This document shows, in pieces, positions 2,451 to 64,000 of a DNA stretch of 64,000 nucleotides. The translations under genes and the position numbers were made by a program. The DNA is taken from contig MU058065.1 of the NCBI GenBank assembly GCA_013265495.1, positions 8,370,302-8,434,301 of the forward strand, written 5' to 3'. Each line of letters begins with the position of its first letter. Within the stretch, counting starts at the first letter, position 1. The DNA comes from Vicugna vicugna (Eukaryota). The notes below the pieces were generated by a model. The model did not search any database, was not told the DNA's origin, and saw only the letters and a program-made list of their open reading frames with translations.

Positions 2451-3457
2451 TACCTGCAGTGAAGCACTGGGACTCCTGGTTTCTTCTTGGCTTCCTAGCA
2501 ATCAAATTCCTTCAAGTCAAAAGGAGAACCAACCCTCCCCAATTCTCCTCGGGTTTCTGCCCAGGACTCCTGGAAGCAGACACCATTAGCGGTGGGAGGG
2601 AATTTGGAGAGCTTCCACCCCCTCGGGTCATTTCAGGGAAGCAGGGAGAACCACAGGTGTGGAGTGTGTTACAACCTCATTCTCCCTGACAGTTTTCCTT
2701 TGAAGATCAGAAAACAGCCCCCCAGGGCAGGGCCCCGGGACAGGGCTCAGACATATCACGAGGCAGCAGAAAAGACCTCCCCTCCCTCCAGCTTGATCTG
2801 GCCCTCCTTCCTGAGGCCGGCAGTTGGTCAGCACATCATCAGTGGGATGTGCACAGGCTTAGGAAGGGTCCTCCCCTCATGAAGCTCACAATCCAGAGGC
2901 TCAGAAAAGACATAATTCATGAGAGATCAAAGGACATGGACAAAGAAAACATACTAATGAGTGGAAATCAAGAAAATCACAGAAGTAACTCATGTAGAGT
3001 GAACATATCTAATTTTCCGTGTGATCTAAGGAACAGACCATTCAGTTTAATTAAATGTTTAGAAAAATAGAGGCACAGTGCCAGGCAACGGGGCTCCAGC
3101 TGGGCCACGTGGGCCTGGGTCACACAGACACGGACCCCGCTGGCCAGATGCTGCCAAGCAGACCCCGGTGCTGTCTGCACTGAATTCTCCACTGTGGTTA
3201 AAGTACTGAAACATTAGTGAATTCACAAAGATGCATGTCCACACACTTCCTTAGACATGGAAGGATGGTCTGGAGCTGCACATTAAAAATGTCCAAGCTC
3301 AGAAATTGGTGGCCAGAGGCTGGAAACCAGGAAGCTGTCCCAGCCTTCTCCATCTGCACCAGCACCCTCCACTTTCTCAGGGGAACATGGACTGTTAATA
3401 CATTAAAAATACAAAACAGAATGAAAGTTGATCACTGACCTGCGTCTTGGTCTTTGA

Positions 3458-4201
3458 GGACAATTCAGCTGCAGCCTGTGACATCCTTTTAATGCAAAGG
3501 GTGAAAATACCTTCCACATGTTAGACTGATGAAAGTACCATTTACACCGTGGCTGATGTTCAGCTTGTAGGTGAGTTGCCAGCAACCACCATTCAAAAAT
3601 CCTTCTGTGGTTTAGTAATAAAAAGACATCTTTTGCTGACATGAAAAAAAAAGAAAACTATAGATGTGTCCAGATATGCATTATCTATTTTCAAAAAAGT
3701 ATCAGAGTGCAACAAAATATGTACATCAACAAAACTACAGTGGCCATTGTGTTGCCTTTCTTTGGTGATTCATGGAGCACTTCAGAATCTTCTTTTCATG
3801 TAGGGTTCCCATTCAGAAAATGCTGTAATTGAAGAAAAAGGGATTCATGATAAGTTCTAATAGGATTCTGGAGTTTGTTGGATCTTGATGATGTAAGCAC
3901 CAAGAGATCAGGGACCACTTCTGCCTTGTTTACCACTATGTATCCAGGACCTACAGCTGTGCTTGGCACACAGAAGGTGCGCAATAAATATTTTTGAGTG
4001 AATAAGACACTCATGGAAGAGAACAGGAGGACCTTCCAGAACACAAGAGATATGCCTCCACTTCTTTCAACTTACACTCTAGCTCCCAAGGTCAGTCATG
4101 GAGTAGAAAAGGACATTTCATCTGCAGCCTGTGACATCCTTTTAATGCAATGGGCGAAAATACCTTCCAGACCGTGGACTGATGAAAATACCATTTATAC
4201 C
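3458..4201 (+). repeat. Pair of 91-bp direct repeats (3458-3548 and 4111-4201)
   Basis: Ungapped alignment by eye, about 11 mismatches in 91; shared core ctgcagcctgtgacatccttttaatgcaa. Confidence 0.9.
3915..4004 (+). mobile_element. L2 LINE 3' end
   Basis: gtgcttggcacacagaaggtgcgcaataaatatttttgagtgaat resembles the L2 terminus. Confidence 0.7.
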
Positions 4202-10388: not shown

Positions 10389-10402
10389 AATAAACTCATA
10401 TG

Positions 10403-10534
10403 TGCCTAGCATGCACGGGGTTGTGGGTTCAATCCCCAGTACCTCCAGTAAAATAAATAAACAAAAAACAAACAAACAAACCTAACTACCCCCCCAAAAC
10501 ACAGCAAAACAAAAAGCAACAAAAATTAAAAAAA
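10403..10534 (+). mobile_element. 5'-truncated camelid tRNA-derived SINE (Vic-1-like)
   Basis: tgcctagcatgcacg...GGTTCAATCC (B box, 10426-10435) cagtacctcc, A-rich segment, acctaactaccccccc and tail. 14-bp TSD aataaactcatRtg at 10389-10402 and 10535-10548. Confidence 0.8.
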
Positions 10535-12506
10535 AATAAACTCATGTGATATTTGTGCAGTTTTTAAAAAGTATGGTACACATGTAGGGTGGACCCTTCA
10601 GTGACTTGAAACTGCCCTACTACTTTTACTGTATGTTTGCCTTACCAATGCGACTTTCCTCTCATAATTTTTATCTTTCTGGTTGTGGCCTTTCTTTTCT
10701 TGTTCCTTTAAGATCCCTTGTGAAGCTAGTTTCATTAACACTGAAAACAATGGTTAAAATCTTTTCAGGAAATAGGTGCCTTATAGTCGGCGGAAGTCCC
10801 AGCTCACCTTCCCTGAGAACTTCGCTTTGGAGGAGGGGCCGCCCTGTAGGGCTGTGGGGTTGAGGATTCCTGGGGGCTCCCATGGTTCTGTGTGTCTGTG
10901 GTTCTATGATAAGGAAGGTTTGAGGGCAAGGAAATTTGCGATTGAGAGTTTATTTGCTGATTGAAGGGACGGCAGTGGCAGGGAGGAGGACCACAGGTTG
11001 GGTTATAGAAGGGGCCTCTTCCACCTTTGCTTTGGCCATGGGCCTCCAGACTAGTGTTTCTAAAGAAGTCTTTGGAGCTCCCAGAGAGCTGGAGTTTTTG
11101 CCGCCAGCACAGACGTGAGAGAAGCCAGGCTGAGAGGCACTGAGGTCATCTGCTGCCTCCATCTTTGAGAGTGGCCTCCTGCTAGTCCAGCTCTGTGTGT
11201 GCCCTAAGAAGACGCAGGCAAAGCTGGCCAGCACAGAGCCAACGTCATCCAGGCTGCAGACAGCTGGTTCTTTCCCCTTCTCTCTCCTACTTCTCTTTTG
11301 CCACCTTCCAAATCCCCCCTAGGTGAGGGTTTTCAAGCCGCAGCCAGAGAATGCCTTCCAACAGCAGATGACGGTGGACAGGATGCAGGATGCCAGCACC
11401 CCCCACTCCCACCCTACCCTCCCCGTGCCCACCCCGGGCTCCAGCCCTCAGCAGCCACTGGGCTCTGATCATAGGAGCCCGTCAGTCCTCTGCCCAGGGA
11501 TGTGCCAGCCGGGATAGTCACTGACGGCTCCTGCTTGTCCAGCCAAATGCCTGAAGCCTACCAGGTGCCAGTCCAGGCCCCCGAGGCTGCCAGATGCGAC
11601 TGGGAAAGTCAGTCAAGGAGATTGACAATGTGGAGACTCAGAAAACAAACAAGGTGAGGGCTGTTTCTGGGCTCCGAGGCAGATGAAGACCCTAGGGAAT
11701 CAGGCAGAATAAACAAACAAACATCGAATAAACAAAGCCTTCTTCAGCGGCAACAACACCAACAAAAGGGAAGGTCAAACCAGGGAGGCACTTTCTTTTC
11801 TGTGTATACTTGAAGATTTTCATAATAAAATTAACAAAATAGTCCTCAGCATGTCACCCTTCCATGCCCTTGTTTATGCAGCCTCTGGCCTGGAAGGTCC
11901 CTCCTCTCACGCCCCATGCATAAATCCTACATTGCCCACGTGGCCCAGTCCAAAGGCCACTTTCTCTAGGAAGCCTTCCCTGATGCCTCCTCCACCACCC
12001 AGTGAGAATCAGTCATGACTTCCTCTGGGTTCTTGTATCATTTTGTTCATGTCATGTTGACAGAAGCTATTCCATTCTCACTTATAAACTAGTTGTATGC
12101 ATGGCATTTCCACCAGCCAGCCCGAGGGTGCCTTAAAGGCAGAGGTTCTGACTTGTTAACCTCTTCATCCTCAGGACCTAATACACGACCTAGGACAACA
12201 GGAAACGATACACACGAATAACCAGATCAATCATTCATTTGTTTCATAAACATTATGGTGCATCTGAATACAACGGGCACTTTACTAGGCAGTGATGGTA
12301 ATGAGACAAAGGAGACAGTAAACCCACTGGCCTCACGGAGCATGGGAATGGGGGCAGCTATGGAGACAGACGATTAGAGCGAGGAGCCATTGGTGCAGGC
12401 ATGAAAAGTACACCCAAGGTAGAGGGGCGGGTATGGAAGAGCGAGCATTCAGTTCTGCCTGAGGCAGGTCAGGAAAGTCTTCAAGAGGGAGGCGATGCTA
12501 GCTTGG

Positions 12507-36762: not shown

Positions 36763-36927
<165 letters not shown>

Positions 36928-38689: not shown

Positions 38690-38786
38690 CCTGGACGACA
38701 ATCTCCCAGAAATGACTTAATTGTTTAATTTCCACTTTCTCTCGCAGGGCTTTCAGGAAACTGTTAAAGCGCTGCTCTTCTGAAAA
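38690..38786 (-). CDS. XRCC5: Ku80 exon (97 nt) [32 protein letters not shown]
   Basis: ccaccAG|TTT TCA...CAG G|GTaagg; Ku80 C-terminal helical domain. Confidence 0.96.
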
Positions 38787-39297: not shown

Positions 39298-39407
39298 CTG
39301 AATGGCTTCCTCCCGGAAGACCTTGATGCAGTCCATGCTCTTCATGAAATACGGTGTTTTGTTGGTATCCAAAAACTGTTCAATGTGATTTATTAGTTGC
39401 TGACTCG
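39298..39407 (-). CDS. XRCC5: Ku80 exon (110 nt) (A)[36 protein letters not shown]
   Basis: tcttttgttctAG|CG AGT...CAG|GTaatg; ORF track 39262..39486 contains this peptide. Confidence 0.96.
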
Positions 39408-44425: not shown

Positions 44426-45138
44426 TGTTACTATGAACCCACAGAGCTGGATGATCCATTTTATACATTGGATATTTCCAGGAAATAGAAATTAACAAGG
44501 TATTCTTTAATTTAAATAATAGAGGAAGATAAGATGTATAGCTTTTTTTTCTTTCTTTCTTTCCAGTTAGGTAGGATACAATGAAAATCAAGTTACTGAA
44601 AAGGTTCACAAGCATATTTAAAACTTTCCCCATCCATTTAAACTTTTTTAAAAGCTGTACTTCTACAAAAACCAGAATTATGTAAAAAATAATATATGGT
44701 TTTCACTTCTACTTGAAACATCTTTAGAGCTACATATACTTCCCTTTCCTTCAGATCTACAGTGAAACACAGCAAACAGTTGCCACACAATTGGGTGGAC
44801 GGTGATGATAAACCTGAGGAACTACAAGTGACTGAACCCTTCCCATGGTGCTCCTGTCCTCTCTGGAGTCAAATGCGCTTCTGAAAATTTAAGTACAAAA
44901 AGAAGGTGCCCTAAATATTTTTCCTCTGAATGGCATAAGATACACTGATTTATTTCTTAAATATCTATTCTGCTACCACTTCTAAGAGTTCAGTTCTAAG
45001 ATTCCAGCAACTTGTCTGGAATGTTTGTGCTCCTCAGTCTGGTATAATTCTCATTTTTAGTTTTGCAGTCTTTAATGAAATATTCTTATTGGGGAAAAAT
45101 AAATCACTGGGTGGCAACAAAAGAAACTGAGAACTAGG

Positions 45139-45687
45139 CAGGGCACGACCATTAAAAGAACGACAGAGCCATTGAGGATAGGACAAACACTAGCTAGAAC
45201 CAACTAGGCCCAAGATGGGGGAAGATTCAACTTCTAGTAGACCTTGAGACTCATTATACACTCCCTGTAATACACTGGTGTGCTAAATGACACACCCACA
45301 GGTGCCATGACAGTTCTGAGGCTGACCATAAAAGGCCAAAAAGTGGGCAGTGGCCCAATTTCTGGAAATTCCCACCCCTTCCCTGAAATAGTTGGAATAA
45401 TCTTCCTACTCGTTAGCATATGAAATTACCCAGCCCATAAAAATTTTAACACTCCCAACACCCTGGGCTGCTCTCACTTTCTGAAACTGACAGCATTCTG
45501 CCTATGGAATGTGTACCTCTCTAAATAAACTTGCTTTCACTTTAAATAAAAAAGAAAGAAAGAAAGAAAGAGAGAGAGGGAGGGAGGGAGGAAGGAAGGG
45601 AGGGAGGGAGGGANNNNNNNNNNNNNNNNNNNNNNNNNNNNNNNNNNNNNNNNNNNNNNNNNNNNNNNNNNNAAAGAAAGAAAGAAA

Positions 45688-45767
<80 letters not shown>

Positions 45768-45780
45768 GAGAAAGAAAGAA
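45139..45780 (+). mobile_element. MER41-like ERV1 LTR fragment (U3-R) with A-rich tail and 15-bp TSD
   Basis: gctaaatgacacacccacaggtgccatgacagtt and ctgcctatgga...aataaacttgctttcacttt are MER41-family hallmarks. TSD aaactgagaactagg at 45124-45138 and 45781-45795. Confidence 0.8.
45547..45780. repeat. (GAAA)n/(GGGA)n polypurine microsatellite spanning an assembly gap (N at 45614-45672)
   Basis: Directly visible. Confidence 0.95.
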
Positions 45781-48124
45781 AAACTGAGAACTAGGGAAAA
45801 GTATAAGCTTTATGAACCTGAAAATGACACTCAAATGTTGTCTTGTTTATAAGCACGTGGACAGTGAATACAGCTCTGTCCTGCCCTTGGCTTCTTCCCC
45901 ATCCTTCCCCCTTTTAGAAACTACTCTGCTAGATTCTTTGCCCCAGAATTCTTCATCTAGCAGACAGAAGAAGGTGCCTGTCTCCCTTTTAAGAACAGAA
46001 AAAATCATCAGATATGACACAGAGAATAGCGTAGCCATAACATTATGCATGACCAGTGGCACAGGAAATTGAACTAAGGTATATAAAGTACTGACCACTT
46101 CAGCAGTACAGACATAGCCCTGGTTGGTTTTTTTTTTAATATTATTATTTTTCTTACCAATAACTAACAAACTCAATTAAAACTTCACCATTTAAACTCC
46201 ACAAGTTTAGTCACAGCCCATTTTTTCATGCTTAACGATTTTCTCATTAAATGCAGTAATTTCTTACAAATTACACCAATAAAAGTAAGTCCTGCTGGGT
46301 GTTTTCTCCCCTTTTAAAATGCTGCCTTTTCATTGATGTGTTAAATTAAAACCCCAGGCACAAAGAGCAGAGTAAATGCAAAGTCTTTATTGTTAGACTC
46401 CATTCCGGCAGACTATGAGATCTCTCTTGTTTTATTTTTGTTTTTATTTGAGTTAACTGTGAGTCCTACTTTGTAGCCACAGGAAGAAAGATTCTGAATG
46501 TCTCTGGGTCTTAGCTCACGCTAAAAAAAAGGTGATAGTGTGAGCTAATGAGAAACTAAAACAATGGCATCTGGTTCAGCCCACTGGCTTCAAGCTTAGT
46601 TTATGTAAGAGAATTACGACAAGTCTAATTTTTCTCATCTTAAATAATGGGCATAAGACCAGATTTGTTCCCAAGTTAGCTGGAAATTTTTAAGTTTCCT
46701 GTTATTTGGGTATGTTCCATGGCATTCTATGGTCTTTTAATTTTTTATTAAAAACATTCAATTTAACCATTAAAGACTTACTGAACATGTCTCACAAACC
46801 CTTAAGGTTATCAGTTCATATTTACAGTTAACTAAAGTTAACTAAAGACCAAAGAACATCCAATCTTTAGTCTAATTCCTTAATTTCCAGAGAGGAGTGC
46901 ACCTAAAGTAGTTCAAAACTGGGACATGATGCTAACATAAGAAAGAAACTAAAGGATGGCCTTTTTAATCAAATGAGAAACTAATTTCTTTAGCTCATTT
47001 ATATAATGTATATGCTACATGGTTGGAAGTATACACTGAGGTTTCAAGTAGGGAGTAGAGAGGGCAGAGAGAGTGGGTCTTCACAACTTTCTAAGGTTCT
47101 AAACAAATTCAAAAACTTGGCAAAGCTTTCTAAAATAAAAGTGATACAGAAGAATTAAGAACTTAACCATTTAGACCTGATCCTGTTCTAGATGAGTAGT
47201 AGAAGGAAGGCAGAATCAAGATGACAGTGTTTGATACTCCAGTAATTTTATAGTATCTGTCTAGCTTCATATCTGAGTGGATGTCATCAAACTAACGCAG
47301 AAGTAGGCAGAAGGAACAAAGTAGTCATAGTAACAGTGCAGCCAAGAGAAAATGCTCTTTTCTCTTGGAGACCAGAGCACTGGTCTTCTCAGGAGACCAG
47401 TCTGGCAATGGGATCCAATTAAAAGTTGGTAATTGAATGGAATTGAAATTCATGTATCAGTTGAAGAGATACAGTCAGACTCCTTAGCAAGGAGAGAAGC
47501 AGGTGTCCACTGGTTGAATGTGCTTTGGTGGATGATGGAGGAGGGGGAGGCAGCATGGAGTGTTTTAAGATGCCTTAAAGAATCTGACTCATTCTTAAAT
47601 GGAACTATCAAGTACTAGAAATTTTAAAACAACCGTATTTCACATAGTAAATCTTCTTAAAACCGGTAAATAATGATGCCCTGTGTTTATATGGTATCTT
47701 TCCTTAAGGATTTTTTCTTCCATTTTTTCCCCCTCTATCTTTTTCTGATTTTGTGAAAAAGTTGTATAATACTCTAGAGTTCAAAATACAGAGATAATAT
47801 TTTCCTCTACTTCTTCTTTGATGAGGCTGAGATTTTGACTCAATCCAAAGAACCTGAGAATTAATTCTGCTGTAATTCAAAAATTCAAATTGTTATTATT
47901 CCCAAACACTGCTTTGTTAAAGTTAACACTGGAAATGAAAAAATTACTATTAGCCAGCAGTACTCAGAGATTAAAAAAAAAAAAAACAGATGGAGGTTTT
48001 ATCTGTCCCACTGATGGCAGACAGCAGCAGAATCTTTGATAATGAATCAGACTACAATAAAACTACTACTGGGCACTGGTATCTCAGGATATACTGGCTC
48101 TTAACTATCAAGAGTGTCTTTAGG

Positions 48125-50500: not shown

Positions 50501-50758
50501 AGATTCTCTTTAGGGAGGATTTGGGGGTAAGAAAAAAGAATGCACATTCTTGGAAGGAATAGCATGAGTAAACATACAGAAGAGCAGGAAAGCCAATGAC
50601 ACAAGAGCATTGGCAGGAATACAGGTTGGTTTGATACAGAGTTTGTAGAGGGGACCTGCAGAAGATGGGTCTGGAATGGGAGGATGGGACCAGGCTGTGG
50701 AAAGTCTTGACTGGGGGATTAATTTCAAAGACATGGGGAGTGATTAAGAAAAGCTGAC

Positions 50759-50997
50759 CCTGAAGGGACAGACTGGGATTTCAAAATGTAGAACAGATAA
50801 ACAAGATTATACTGTATAGCACAGGGAAATATATACAAGATCTTATGGTAGCTCACAGAGAAAAAAAAATATGACAATGAATATACATATGTTCATGTAT
50901 AACTGAAAAATTATGCTCTACACTGGAATTTGACACAACATTGTAAAATGACTATAACTCAATAAAAAAAAGTAAAATTTTTTTTAAATAATAAAAA
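50759..50997 (+). mobile_element. Short 5'-truncated young L1 3'UTR (camelid-type)
   Basis: Perfect 13-bp TSD aagaaaagctgac (50746-50758, 50998-51010) at a tt|aagaaaa site; closely similar to 55415-55620. Confidence 0.9.
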
Positions 50998-51559
50998 AAG
51001 AAAAGCTGACTCATAATCAAGCTTGTGCTGTAAGAAGCTGAATTTGTGCCAACATATGGGGTGAGCTGAACAGGAAGAGCTTTGAGGATAATTAATATAG
51101 GATACTCTTACTGTCCAATGGTGAAATAATGAAAGCCTGAATTAGAGTAGTGGTATTTACGATGAAAAGGAAAAGACAGATATGACACAACTGAATTAGA
51201 AAATGATTAGAAATTAGAAGAAAATTAGAAATGAGTATAAAGTGGTCAGAAATGTTCATCAACAGTAAACTCAAGAGGCAAAATAATGGTAGTGACAAAG
51301 ATCACTTATTCGGGGGAAAGTTCTATTAGCACTCATAGTTCCAGGATACCCCATCACTTTGGCTGTTGCCTCACTTGGGACACCTTTCTTTGGGACCTCA
51401 CCTATTCAGCCTTTTGTGGCTCAGGTTATGCCAGCCTCCTCCATGAATTCTTCCTCAAATTGGTCAACCTACTTGCATCTGTGTCTGTACTGTGCATCTT
51501 TCCTATTGCCTTGGATGAACTACCTGTGCATGCATCTATCTAAGTTACCTCTTCCATCT

Positions 51560-54499: not shown

Positions 54500-57400
54500 A
54501 ATAACCTTCAATATTCAAAACATCATGGAGAAAAACTAGACAGAAAATCAACAAAGATATAGATTTGAACAAACTATCCTTCAAACTGACCAAACTGACA
54601 TTTACAGAACCCTCAACCTAACAACAGAATACACATGCTTGTAAAGGGCATATGAAACATTTGTCAGAACAGCCTATATGCTAAGCTATAAAATAAGTCT
54701 CAATAAATTTAAAGGGGTTGATGCCATTCAAAATATGTTCTCCAATCACAACAGGATTAAATTAAAAATCAACAACAGAAAGAAATTTGGGGATTCTCCA
54801 ATATTTGGAAATTAAACAACACAGTTCCAAATAATCCAAAGGTCAAGTAATTACAAAAGAAATTAGAATACTTTAATTGAATGAAAATGAAAACACGATG
54901 TTATCACAATTTATGATGCTTAGCTAAAGAACTGGCTGGAGGGAAATGTATAGCTTTAAACATCCATGCTAGAAAAGAAATGACCATATGACCCAGGAAT
55001 CCCACTCCTGGGCTTGTATCCAGAAGGAACCCTACTTCAGGATGACACCTGCACCCCAATGTTCATAGCAGCATTATTTACAATAGCCAAGACATGGAAA
55101 CAGCCTAAATGTCCATCAACAGGTGACTGGATAAAGAAGATGTGGTATATTTATACAATGGAATACTACACAGCCATAAAAACCGACAACATAATGCCAT
55201 TTGCAGCAACATGGATGCTCCTGGAGAATGTCATTCTAAGTGAAGTAAGCCAAAAAGAGAAAGAAAAATACCATATGAGATCGCTCATATGCGGAATCTA
55301 AAAACAAAAACAAAAAAACAAACAAACCAAAGCATAAATACAGGACAGAAATAGACTCATAGACAGAGAATACAGACTTGTGGTTGCCAGGGGGGTGGAG
55401 GGTGGGAAGAGATAGACTGGGATTTCAAAATTGTAGAGCAGATAAGATCACACTGTACATAGCACAGGGAAATATACACAAAATGTTATGATAACTCACA
55501 GAGAAAAAAATGTGACAATGAGTGTGTATATGTCCATGAATGACTGAAAAATTGTGCTGAACACTGGAATTTGACACAACATTGTAAAATGATTATAAAT
55601 CAATAAAAAATGTTAAAAAAAAGAAAAGAAATGAGGTATCAAATCAATAATCTGAACTTCCACTAGAAGAAACCAGAGAAAGAGCAAATTAAATTCAAAG
55701 CAAACAAAAGGAAGGGATAATAAGGATCAGAGCAGAAATCAATGAATTTTTTTTAAAATGATAATTGAGAAAATAAAATTAAAAGTTAGGATCTTCTATA
55801 AAAGAGAAACAAAATCCATACACCTTTACCTAGACTGACCAAGAAAAAGAGAAGTTACAAATTACTAAAATTAGAAATAAAAGTGTGCACATCACTATCA
55901 ACTACAGAACTTAAAATATTATAAGGCAAAACTAATATGAACAATGCTATGCCAACGAATTAGACAACTTAGATGAAATGGACAATTCTTATTAAGCCAC
56001 AAATTACTACCAATAACTCAAGAAGAAACAGAAAATCTGACTAAATCTATAAGTAAAATAACTGAATTAGTATTAAAAAGCTTCCCACAAAGAAACCAGG
56101 CCCAGAAGGCTTCACTGGTGAATTCCAGCAAATATTTAAAGAAATCATACCAATCCTGAAAAGGAGGACAGACAATTTCCCAACTCATTCTATGAGGCCT
56201 GTATTTCCCTGATACTAAAGCCAAAGCTTTCACACACATAGGCAAAAAACTACGGAAAAGTATCCCTCATGATATATATACAAAGTCCTATCAAAATATT
56301 AGCAAAATGAATTCAGGAACATTCTAAAAGGATTATTTACCATGATTGACTGGAATTTATCCCTGCAACATAGGGCTAGTTTAACAACTGAAAATCAGTG
56401 AATATAATATGCTATATTAATAGAAAAATAAAACTCACATGATCATCTTAATGTATGTAGAACATGCACCTGACAAAACTCAGCATCCATTCATAATAAA
56501 AACTCTCACCCACCTAGGAATGGAAGAAAATTTCTCCAAGCTGATAAAGACAATCTGAGAATAACTCAGAACTAGCATACTAATGGTGAAAGACTGAAAG
56601 CCAACACTGTACTGTATGTTCCAGCCAGTAAAATTGAGAAAAAGAAAACTAAAAGCATACAAGTTAGAAGGAAGAAGTAGAATTGCCTTTATTTGCAGAC
56701 AATATGATCCTGTAAGTAAAAAATCCTAAGGAGTATATAAAAACAACCAGAACTACTAAACAAGTTTAATAAGGCTGCAGGATATGAGATCAATATACAA
56801 TAATCACTATTTCTATCTACTAGCAACAAACAGTCCAAAAATTAATTTTAAAAAATTCATTCACAATTGCATTAAACAAAATAAAATACTTGGCAAAATT
56901 TTAACAAGAGAAGTGCAGGACTTGTACACTAAAACTGTAAAACACTATGGAGAGAAAGTAAACAAGATACAAATCGATGGGAAAATAATCCATGTTCATG
57001 AATTAGAAAATTCAAAATTGTTAAGATGGAAATTCTTCCTTAAATATTTACATACTCAATGTAATCCTTATCAAAATCCCTATAAATTGAAAAGCTGATC
57101 TTAAAATTTATATGGAAATTCAAAAGACCTAGATTAGCCAAAACAATTTCAGCAAAGAACAAAATTGGAAGACTTGTGATACAGTATTTCCAAACTTACT
57201 ATAAAGCTAAAGTAATCCAACACTGTATTAGTGAAGGACAGACACAGGTCTATAAAAGAGAACTGAAAACTACAGAAATAAACTCTTACTTTACGGTCAA
57301 ATAATTTTCAATAAGGTGCCAAGGCAATTTGATGGGAAAAAGACAGTTTTTTCAACAAATAGTGCTGGGACAATTAGTTATCCCTATGAAAAACAATGAA

Positions 57401-59239: not shown

Positions 59240-61365
59240 TCTCCAAGGACTTCTATGCTGATAATATTCTCAAGACCTGCTGAAACTGGGTTCTATATCT
59301 GAATCAAATTCTCTTCTCTTTTCTGGCCAAAGAAACAAGCATTACATTTTTTAAAGTTTTATGTGGACATGGTTAACAGACAGGACTAACTGGACCAAAT
59401 TATTCCTGCCACTTCTTTCTGTGTCAGCATACTTCTTGCCCTGGGCTTACAATTTGAAAGGGGGGGACCAAAACACTTTTACTGCATTTAAGTGGGACTC
59501 CAAGCCGTTTCTAGGCTCCTCTTGACACATTTCAGCCAATTAGTGACTATTTTAACAAAAGCCTAACATCCTTTCCTAAACATCTTAATTGCTTAAGAGC
59601 TTCTGTTGTTTGCCACGAGCAGTCACTTTAAGTCATTGATTAAAGCAGTTTGCACATCAGCACAATCTGAAATCAGTTTCCTTTTTCAACCAGCTGGGCT
59701 TAAGAACCAATTGCGAAGACAGCCCAATTCAAGGACGTGCAATGCCCTGCATGACAGCGATCTACCATGCACTGTGAATTTATAGGCAAGAGGGAAAAAG
59801 AACCAAACTGCCATGAGTAAGTACTTCAACTGCTCTCTGTTTCACAAATCACTTTCATTAGCACTTCCTGCAAGGGTGAACTCCAACAGGAAGGTGGTTA
59901 GCACACCTTTCTTCAGAGCACCCACTATTAATGCTGCGTTTCCAGCAGAGCCAATGGTGAGCACCTGCCTGGCTGCACTGCAGGCACAGGACATCCTTGC
60001 AAGCCAATGGACCACTACGCTAAGTGCAGGCTTGAGTAGACTGCGCTCTTTCAGTTGTTCTGACAAAGGGAAGGCATTCGAGTCCCACACTTTCAGCCAG
60101 AGGAAAACTAACCTTTCTACTTTTAACATTTAAAGGGAAAAAGTATTCAGCAGGTTTAAGGTAACCAATTTTGCCACCTGGCATGAAAAAACAAAACATT
60201 GGGAGAAGAAGAATGCTGTTGTGTATCACATATAAATGTCCTTTACTGCTCTCAGGAAGAAATCTCAGTGCTCACTAAGAGCTTACCTATAGCAAACAGG
60301 TTTTGATTTGTATGCTACCAGCTGGCCCTCTTTCTTAACAGATAGCCAGGCTACATTTTATAAGAGCCAGACTCTGTAATTAGAGAGACTCTGAGCTACA
60401 GATTGATGGGAATTTGAAAGGATGCTAGAAGCTGAGTGAGAATGGATAGAAGCCTTTTAGGGAGAGTTGTGAAAACTGAATACACTAATGAAGTGGCTGT
60501 GCATATGATGGTCTTTGATTTCTATGTCCTGTCTTTTATTTTTGTCCTCATTTCAATGATTTCATTTTAAAAATTTGGTTGATGAGTTTTTATTAAAATG
60601 TAAACTTCAGAGCAGTGCTGTGGCATCTAATGAAATGTAGGCAACCGATGAAGAAGTTTAAGCCACAAGAGGCCAAGAATTGGCTCTCTGGAATCTGATG
60701 CAGTGTCTTCCACACACTTGCAATAATCTGTGGAAAGTCATCTCAACTCTTCTAGGCTTCAATCCATGCCACACTGAAGATGAAAAACACCCTAAGGGTC
60801 AGTGATATATAATTACCATGTCAAATAATAACATGCCCTTTTAGTCGGTATCCTTTACCATTCCGAATAAACTTTTTGTTTTCACATGAGACTACTACTT
60901 GTCACTGAAAAGTAAGGCGTAAAATAAGCCTGGATCATCAAGTTCTGGAGTTTAACAATTTAAAACTAAACAAGTCAAAAAGGAAGCCAGATGTTTAATA
61001 AAAAATATAAAAGTATAGACTAAACCTGTTAAATCTATAACCATGTATTTTCTCTCTCATGATTAGATGTATGACTCTTATTTTGGGAAAGGACTAAGAA
61101 AGTATCTCAAACTGTTAAAAAAAACAAAACAAAACTTTTATAGGGCAAAAGATGCTTAAAATTTTAGTGCTGTTTGTATTTAGTGTCCTTTCAAGATGTT
61201 CAAAGTATTTGACAGAACTTATTTTTCTTAAAATTTTCAGCTCTGTGCAAAATAATAGATAAAGGCAGTGTTTTTATCTTCTTATCTTTACCTGGAAAGA
61301 GCTGTGATAGGTTATGTAATTCATATCCACGATTATACAAATCAGGGTCCATTAAAAAGAGAAAA

Positions 61366-61394: not shown

Positions 61395-64000
61395 ATGGGA
61401 AATTTCTCCTAGGTCCCAACTCTTGAGAATACACAGGTTAGGACTTGATTCATGGCAGAAAATCATATAATGAGTGCAAGCAAGCTGCCATGCAAATGGG
61501 AAGTACTCTACCCCACAGAGTTGAAAAACTGTCTACTTGACTTTGATAAATGATATAATTGTACTACTAATAGTACTACATTCTGCTTAGTGTTGGAAGG
61601 TCCTGTAGAAGCGAATTTTAAGAAATATCCTTTAAAATTGAAACCATGTTGTTTGATGTAATGAGAATAAGGTAGGTTGGAGAACAAAGACAACAGACTT
61701 GAGGATGAGATGAGATTCAAACAAAGTGGTATAAGAAAGACGAGGTAGCCACAGAATAAAGTGATCATCACCCATCAAATGGATGTGTGCACATCACTGC
61801 TCACTGTACATGAGTCTAACACTAAATATCAGACCCCAAATAGTAATCTGTACCATTTTTACTTAGGATGCCTCTTCTTGACAGGTTTGTTTTTTAACCA
61901 ATCAGGCTCCTGTGAATTCAATTTGGTGGAACGGAGCTTCACCACTATTACCACTCAAGGTCTAATATGGAACCTATAAGCTAAGTGGCAAAAACAGGGT
62001 CCCTGGGGAAAGAATCATCTCACATTACATAGTTACATTCCATCCTTTTATCTGTCAACAAATATACATCTTTCTGGCCCTTAGAGAACCAGCTTTTGAC
62101 ATGAGGTACATTCAAGCTATTTTACATAATATCTCATACTCAGGGGGAACCTATAAATTCATACATATCTCAGTCACACAGAAGTTAGTTGGAGAACTGA
62201 AGTGATGTGGCCTATCCTTCTCCTCCAGTTTCCTGTCTATCTTTTGACCATTTTAGCACTCTTCCTAAGTGCAAGCAGGGAAGGGACGAGGTGGAAATCC
62301 ATGGTGTCCTCTTCAGAAGCTCCACGGAAGGGTTCGTGGAGGAGACACTCTTGTAAGTGGGCAACCTCGAATCCAGGAGTCTCTAAGAATTCAGGTTCTC
62401 AGGTTCTTTCAACAACCCACAACTGCAGATAACAGATATCACAAATGATTGCACTGATGCACTTAAGAATACTGTGGGAGGGAAAAAGCCCTAAATTACA
62501 AATGATCATTATCTGTACAGCCGTGGTCAAGAATTTTCTATTGTAAAACAGTAGTGTAATGGTGGGGGGTATTGAGGGAGGAGAAAAGGGACTAGAAAAA
62601 GAAGGGTACTTGAGAATCAAAGCATCAGCAGTCAGAAAGAACACATTCCTGTGGTTCAGTGTTACCTCCTCTGTGCCAATAAGCTAAGAATAAGAAATAT
62701 CACTGACATCAAAAACTAGAAGACAAGAAAATGTGCAGCCGCCTACTGGAGACTCCTGATGTCAAAGAGATCAGATCACAATACTCTCAGTATGACTCCG
62801 CTACTATTAGGCCAGATAGAAAGGAATGACACCCATATTTTAGTTCATAATAACAGGCGAGAGGGCCAAGTTCTAATTAAGAGTAAAACTATCTATTGTT
62901 GATCATGCTTTTGGCAACTGAATTTGAAAAATAGATAAACTGGAGAAAAGAGAAGGGCTTCTGCCTCCTGTGTCCCAGACAGAGATCTCCAGATCAATAC
63001 CAGATAAGCCGCTTTAAACTTGAAGGAGCACTTTGGGCTTGCAAGGGAAGTGAGTCTTGGCTCACAGAGGGCCTTAGTAAAGAGATGTCCTGGCAGAAGA
63101 AAAGTAGAAAAGTAATGAAAAAATAAATTTCTGGAGCTTGAGGCAAGAAAAAGAATCCAGGTTAGGACCATGATAGAACTAGTTGCTAACAAGAGGAAAG
63201 TCACATTTTCCCAAGGCTCTGCAAAAAGTCTGCTTTTGTGAGGTCACTAGAAAGAAAGCTCTGATCAAGTCCCAGATGGAGGTACAGAGGGACACCTACC
63301 ACCACAACACTAGCAATGTGCCAGCGCGCAGTCGCATTCGACATAACAGTTTGGTCTATTCATCAAAAATCCTATCTATAAGCACAAAGTCTGAGATGCT
63401 TGACCTTACAATGTTTAAACAAACAAACAAAAAACATGTCGGAAAGGAAGGCATTAGGAATCAGGAGAAACAGTGCTGCTAGGTAGAAAAATCCAGTACT
63501 TGAAGGAGACATGGATTTGGATCTCTGTACAACTTTGGAGGAAGTTCATTTGTTCCAGTTTTACAGTTTTTCCATCTATAAAATATGAATAATAATACCT
63601 ATTGTAACCTACATGCCTTCTAGGGGTCACTTGTCCGTGTTATTTTCACAGGACTGCTTCAAATCCCCAATTCAGCCTAGAGGAAACACTGTTTTCCTAA
63701 GACAGGAGCAAATTCTCAGGAATTTTCTCTCAAGACCTCCGGTGCTCTCAGGTGCTTTCTCTGCCTGAATAATTCCAGACCCAAAACTCAGCCTCCTCAC
63801 CCGTTTCCCCGAATAGAGCACTCAAGCTGAGCATTCCCTAGTTTTTCTGACACTGCATATTTGCAGCCATGAGCTGGGAACATACTGTAGAACGCTGTGT
63901 ATGCCCTTGGTTAATTCATTCACTTCCTCTCTCCCTCTTACCTTTTCTCCTCATCCCCTCCTCTCGCTCTAGTCTTTCCACTTCTATGATGCTAGTAGCT

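Follow-up and report, generated by a model that had tools for sequence, protein, structure and literature searches.

The 64-kb stretch of DNA analysed here (the window, 64,000 nucleotides) carries coding exons of XRCC5 (Ku80) on its minus strand, two of which match Pfam Ku_PK_bind with E-values of 2.9e-5 (just under the curated cut-off) and 1.4e-6. An LTR-derived insert lies in an intron of this gene, in the antisense orientation and 5.7 kb 5' (in gene sense) of an internal coding exon, which agrees with a sequence-only reading of the same DNA that had placed it inside XRCC5. The intronic and antisense placement follows from a motif search of 39408-64000, in which no upstream XRCC5 exon was found up to position 64000. 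Coordinates of the insert, its parts and the nearby exons are collected in Table 1.

Table 1 Features of the XRCC5 insert and of the neighbouring exons (window coordinates)
Feature	Position	Strand	Remarks
Further XRCC5 exon	36820-36887	-	
Next XRCC5 coding exon	38690-38786	-	97 nt
Nearest XRCC5 (Ku80) coding exon	39298-39407	-	110 nt; AG..GT bounded; insert in the intron 5' of this exon
Left TSD copy	45124-45138	+	15 bp exact; possible start 45119 (20 bp)
LTR-derived body, U3 and R	45139-45543	+	405 nt; lacks about 18-20 nt of the family 5' end and all of U5
GAS-type motif TTCNNNGAA	45379-45387	+	candidate STAT1 site; about 0.1 expected by chance in 405 nt
TATA-like CATAAA	45436-45441	+	candidate U3/R promoter element
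Polyadenylation signal AATAAA	45524-45529	+	14 nt before the tail
A-rich tail, decayed compound (GAAA)n/(GAGG)n microsatellite	45544-45780	+	237 nt, gap included
Assembly gap	45614-45672	.	59 N, within the tail microsatellite
Right TSD copy	45781-45795	+	exact repeat of the left 15-mer

Anatomy of the insert and its surroundings

The insert is composed of an LTR-derived body followed by an A-rich tail, and is bracketed by a perfect direct repeat of AAACTGAGAACTAGG, the target-site duplication (TSD). This 15-mer occurs exactly twice in the window, and no third match is present there even when two mismatches are allowed; in shuffled sequences the mean number of matches was 0.26, with two or more found in 2 of 100 shuffles. 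An exact repeat of at least 15 nt within 1 kb upstream was seen at 3 of 1961 random window positions, with all others reaching 13 nt at most. The TSD can be extended to 20 nt, starting from 45119, at the cost of two mismatches. With the strict 15-bp TSD the bottom-strand nick reads GTTT/CT, while the 20-bp version places it at TTTT/GT.

The body begins without TG, ends without CA and stops shortly after its own polyadenylation signal. These features and the perfect 15-bp repeat had all been noticed in the sequence-only reading and are borne out. The tail had been described as A-rich sequence decayed to (GAAA)n. It is indeed built of A and G (116 A and 61 G, with 1 T and the 59 N of the gap), but the microsatellite is a compound one in which (GAGG)n also takes part. 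CpG is depleted in the body, with 3 dinucleotides observed versus 19.4 expected. A second CATAAA is found at 45327, in addition to the one listed in Table 1 that, from its sequence, may have served as a promoter element. The body has no match in Rfam, and its predicted RNA folds no better than shuffled sequences, 75 of 100 of which fold as well (z 0.55). The insert probably has no function.

We scored 24 listed sequencing runs by the share of 37 words sampled from the body that each contained. In 14 of them, all DNA runs, with four organism labels and from five studies, 0.86-0.92 of the words were present, and the body is therefore not an invention of the assembly; one of these 14 runs may be the source of the window. 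Four RNA runs with word shares of 0.08-0.16 were left out of the evidence.

Three further A-tailed, TSD-flanked inserts are present in the window, on the same strand as the LTR insert. Two are 5'-truncated insert ends on the + strand, antisense to XRCC5, located at 50746-51010 (TSD of 13 bp) and 54974-55634 (TSD of at least 10 bp). We take the inserts themselves, at about 50759-50997 and 54984-55624, to be L1 3' ends; in the second, the C-terminal frame of ORF2 is still open (54984-55301). The third is a truncated SINE-like insert at 10389-10545 (piece 10400-10534) with an A-rich tail and an 11-bp TSD, similar in appearance to the camelid tRNA-derived SINE. We take the lineage to be camelid, in part from the appearance of this SINE and of the L1 ends. 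Elsewhere in the window, an open frame on the + strand at 370-807 reads like the last exon of MARCHF4, convergent with XRCC5, and has no match in Pfam. At 59786-60133, inside the large XRCC5 intron, two open frames of 115 and 95 codons overlap on opposite strands; the minus-strand frame has no Pfam match, and the stretch is possibly conserved non-coding DNA or a chance occurrence. A local duplication of 92 nt, with 88% identity, relates 3457-3548 to 4110-4201.

Relatives of the body and the ends of the LTR

A natural antisense frame of the body, 63 codons long (45237-45425), was used as the query of a protein search and matched 216 proteins at E<=0.001, of which the best 150 were listed. Further searches gave 14 matches with the window's own frame and 120 with an alignment query, partly overlapping with the earlier ones. 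All 14 candidates of the former matched at 58-79% identity, with no close sibling among them, and part of P0052 used as query matched P0052 alone out of three candidates. The matched proteins are spurious ORFs, that is, antisense translations of related LTR copies in the host DNA of public assemblies; hosts named among them are reindeer (P0258) and blue whale (P0291). The relatives are at most 80% identical to the body, and no close camelid sibling is found among the matches. The 216 antisense ORF matches, together with the 120 from the alignment query, show that the body belongs to a dispersed mammalian repeat. For the analysis of its ends, 268 representatives were mapped onto the element, with cluster members kept out of the counts.

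DNA pattern scans returned loci in viral contigs (0, 1 and 0), metagenome contigs (2) and prokaryote genomes (6); in all 9 the similarity is confined to 20-27 nt around the pattern, and they were discarded as chance matches. An alignment scan of viral contigs confirmed none of 49 pattern matches, and blastn against plasmids and phages found nothing.

Three of the relatives have a structure of their own. In P0211 the frame runs from the 5' end of one related LTR directly into the 3' end of another, which suggests that its host carries two LTRs head to tail. P0291 is a blue whale gene model in which an S5 DRBM domain is joined to about 25 initial residues encoded by the antisense strand of a related LTR; this is probably the annotation of a ribosomal-protein retrocopy beside an LTR. 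In P0274 the far end of a related LTR adjoins other text, which we take to resemble L1 ORF2, suggesting an LTR inserted into an L1 fragment.

The relatives locate the 5' end of the family. In two frames, 27 and 16 of them agree for 6-7 codons past the window junction, beyond which the agreement drops to background level. Immediately past the junction, 22 of 27 relatives have P, and at the seventh codon 21 of 26 have Q or H, which is compatible with a TG start and puts the family TG about 20 nt upstream of 45139. The XRCC5 copy thus lacks just 18-20 nt of the LTR, so that it represents an almost complete U3-R with a tail. The sequence-only reading, which had named 5' truncation as a mark of L1 copying, had not foreseen that the truncation is so slight. 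As judged from the same alignments, the last GG of the left TSD also fits the LTR sequence and would constitute a 2-nt microhomology.

At the 3' end, the last 45 nt of the body are reached by 30 of the 268 representatives, and at least eight residues past the tail start are read by 18. Among these 18 crossing relatives, 12 have non-A, U5-like sequence in common past the tail start. They fall into two types, one of eight and one of four (P0052, P0194, P0211 and P0274), the latter having the R end closest to that of the window (KVKESLFRE in P0274, KVKASLFRE in the window). In five pairs the alignment extends 29-52 residues beyond the tail start, at scores that 0-2 of 500 shuffles reach; two links among the 12 are weak (E 0.007 and 0.012). 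The remaining 6 of the 18 either begin within R or pass sooner into unrelated sequence. Judged by eye, none of the 18 has poly(A)-like sequence past the tail position, and a scripted test on an earlier set of relatives likewise found 0 of 19 to be tail-like past the poly(A) position; the hosts of the relatives tested are probably not camelids.

Three relatives close the U5-like stretch with a common terminal motif that, inferred from the genetic code, is compatible with a CA end. From the extent of the shared sequence, U5 would measure about 90-150 nt, more than the 59-N gap could hold if the gap size is right, and the LTR of the relatives roughly 520-570 nt, with ends compatible with TG and CA. 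The sequence-only reading had held U5 to be missing and had named U5 sequence continuing after 45795 as the contrary finding to look for. The shared sequence of the 12 relatives has no match in 45546-47000, the one weak match to this interval coming from P0028, outside the 12. On this comparison, U5 is absent from the XRCC5 locus.

Origin of the insert

We are fairly confident that the insert is a sporadic L1-mediated retrocopy of an RNA that received its poly(A) tail at the LTR's own signal. In the mechanism we propose, an RNA begun upstream of an ERV1 (MER41-like) LTR would have been cleaved and polyadenylated at the LTR signal, giving it a U3-R-poly(A) end. L1 ORF2p would have nicked the bottom strand at an A-rich site in the XRCC5 intron and primed on the poly(A), about 405 nt being copied before the cDNA was joined to the target some 20 nt short of the LTR 5' end, presumably at the GG microhomology. 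Staggered cleavage would then account for a duplication of 15-20 bp, and subsequent decay of the tail for the purine microsatellite.

RNA initiated at the normal LTR promoter has no U3. The source RNA must therefore have started upstream of that promoter, since U3 is included in the copy. The sequence-only reading had an ERV transcript mobilised by L1. The L1-type insertion stands, given the LTR origin, the missing U5, the tail at the element's own signal and the long TSD. That the RNA was proviral is one possibility among three, because the insert holds LTR sequence alone, and host read-through or an L1 transduction ending in a solo LTR would give the same product. As a matter of judgement, we would put about half of the weight on a proviral 3' LTR, about a third on host read-through into a solo LTR and the small rest on an orphan L1 transduction.

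Several published properties of L1 are relevant to this mechanism. L1 mobilises polyadenylated RNA generally (PMC5753468); its TSDs are most often 14-16 bp long, and the match to the endonuclease motif often improves when the TSD is relaxed (PMC2912911); microsatellites of this kind are known to arise from A tails (PMC3812793). Variants of the TT/AAAA endonuclease site have been catalogued, and a pyrimidine/purine step is almost always present (PMC4859970). Against the L1 reading, the nick of the strict TSD is without this step, and the better site needs the 20-bp TSD with its two mismatches. A random stop of the copy within 20 nt of the LTR start is also unlikely, and the left TSD loosely resembles the missing LTR start. 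In addition, the relatives are spurious ORFs of limited identity with hosts that are unnamed or non-camelid, so that the LTR ends are known from them and not from a camelid subfamily. Our guess is that the junction fell at the LTR start through pairing of the purine-rich end of the target with the purine-rich start of the LTR; the microhomology dependence of trans-mobilised copies is weak (PMC2912911).

A copy that starts at most 20 nt from the LTR 5' end, with its GAS-like and TATA-like motifs kept, could also belong to a dispersed camelid family of U3-R-poly(A) retrocopies, being either part of an ERV family systematically mobilised by L1, as HERV-W is, or a self-contained SINE-like short RNA that starts near the U3 5' end and retains its promoter. 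Such copies would probably be annotated as near-full solo LTRs, and six alpaca-named MER41 subfamilies, with 978-2718 extracted sequences each, represent a large source pool (PMC9435751 Table S13). We nevertheless regard this as unlikely, and in the window and among the related ORFs we found no positive sign of the SINE-like family raised in the sequence-only reading. A second copy is absent from the 64-kb window, the related ORFs have no tail-like ends, albeit in hosts that are probably not camelids, and U3 would be missing from an RNA made at the normal LTR promoter. In two further runs from a sample that carries the body, the share of the body's words is 0.41-0.43, and in RNA runs it is at most 0.38, a weak sign that speaks against many near-identical copies only and is silent on an old, diverged family. 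It is quite unlikely, moreover, that the insert is one of many camelid copies with nearly the same start inside the LTR 5' end, annotated as solo LTRs, which would make the MER41-like family either a second L1-spread ERV group or an LTR-only SINE-like unit with its own promoter and STAT1 site.

A solo LTR of the usual, integrase-made kind has a short TSD of 4-6 bp. To read the insert in this way, the left 15-mer would have to be the diverged 5' end of the LTR, with U5 later deleted or replaced by a microsatellite. The left 15-mer is nearer to the missing LTR start than most sites, its score being reached by 39 of 3000 random sites, or by 53 of 2000 when an A-rich start is imposed. This score is, however, 12.0, whereas true LTR starts compared with one another give 30.8, and of 1000 A-rich sites with a terminal GG, 274 score as well as the 15-mer. 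On these scores, target DNA is a better reading of the left TSD than the start of the LTR itself. The locus has neither a complete U3-R-U5 with TG..CA nor a short TSD, the absent TG start and the exact right-hand 15-mer are left unexplained, and a deletion ending precisely at the poly(A) position would be chance. The right flank is unlike the LTR body and was rejected as a second LTR start, 1210 of 2956 random sites scoring as well at 40 nt. An integrase-made solo LTR is thus very unlikely.

An assembly artefact, in which two contigs or haplotypes were mis-joined across the N gap that does lie between the two TSD copies and inside the microsatellite, is most improbable, as the purine array flanks the gap on the same strand on both sides, the body/tail (45543/45544) and tail/TSD (45780/45781) junctions each lie in continuous sequence away from it, and a mis-join alone would neither remove U5 at the poly(A) position nor repeat 15 bases from 640 nt away.

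Comparison with known systems

The sporadic L1 retrocopy that we favour matters little as a single copy: L1 copies any polyadenylated RNA, and thousands of camelid MER41-like LTRs supply poly(A) signals. It does provide a clean non-primate case of a structure described mainly for HERV-W, and it illustrates that a retrocopy can keep almost all of U3-R and so may pass for a solo LTR. Were such copies common, the numbers and ages estimated for solo LTRs would carry a bias, a second family would become available to test why L1 prefers certain ERV RNAs (those of HERV-W but not of platyrrhine ERV-W), and integrase may not have been needed for the spread of interferon-responsive MER41 motifs. A literature search, with most subscription journals and Repbase Reports outside its scope, found no report of L1-made MER41-like LTR copies, and the available parts of bioRxiv 10.64898/2026.04.29.721355 and PMC6675863 held nothing relevant.

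We take the body to resemble MER41 sequence. Membership of MER41 is likely, on the basis of this resemblance, the hosts of the relatives and PMC9435751. No consensus matching the body's words was found in the literature text or in the searched supplements of PMC9435751, as far as these were available. For MER41_Vpa, 1715 sequences gave 1227 potentially orthologous matches in wild camel (PMC9435751 Table S13). Compared with the cetartiodactyl MER41-like ERV1 LTRs (the MER41_Vpa subfamilies and MER41_BT), the insert shares a GAS-type motif, a weak family marker that has been described in MER41_BT (PMC9435751), and it has relatives in a ruminant and a whale. The relatives are dispersed and have TG..CA-compatible ends, and the body has a TATA-like box and AATAAA; conserved LTR motifs are treated in PMC3601003. 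Unlike these LTRs, the XRCC5 copy is without both termini and U5, and its ends are of the L1 type.

Ordinary 5'-truncated mRNA retrocopies and orphan L1 3' transductions share TSD length, A tail, 5' truncation and short junction microhomology with the insert (PMC2912911, PMC4859970, PMC5753468). In contrast to these, the copied part of the XRCC5 insert is wholly LTR and stops almost at the LTR start. In SVA, whose SINE-R derives from HERV-K env and LTR, an L1-mobilised RNA likewise takes its 3' end and poly(A) signal from an ERV LTR (PMC4859970, PMC5753468). SVA, a family of about 2700 copies, is a composite that also includes hexamer, Alu-like and VNTR parts (PMC4859970, PMC5753468), whereas none of these parts is seen in the XRCC5 insert.

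The HERV-W processed pseudogenes have in common with the insert a 3' LTR reduced to U3-R, an A tail and a long TSD (PMC5016936, PMC5537654). The insert differs from them in ERV family and lineage, in having no internal or R-U5 sequence, and in being a single copy, where such copies make up two thirds of the HERV-W family. Reviews single out HERV-W as the one human ERV group that L1 mobilises specifically (PMC5537654), and its platyrrhine sister group shows no such copies (PMC6995185); the uniqueness stated in the reviews concerns families and not single events. In an earlier data set, the most frequent size class of HERV-W copies was the very short one of 0-0.5 kb (PMC5016936, PMC5537654), and intronic survivors are mostly antisense (27 of 29, PMC3031232), as is the XRCC5 insert in its intron. 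With its U3-R lacking U5, its tail after its own signal and a TSD of the variable-length kind (5-15 bp in HERV-W, 4-20 bp in L1), the insert would, on our analysis, resemble a HERV-W processed pseudogene in its working.
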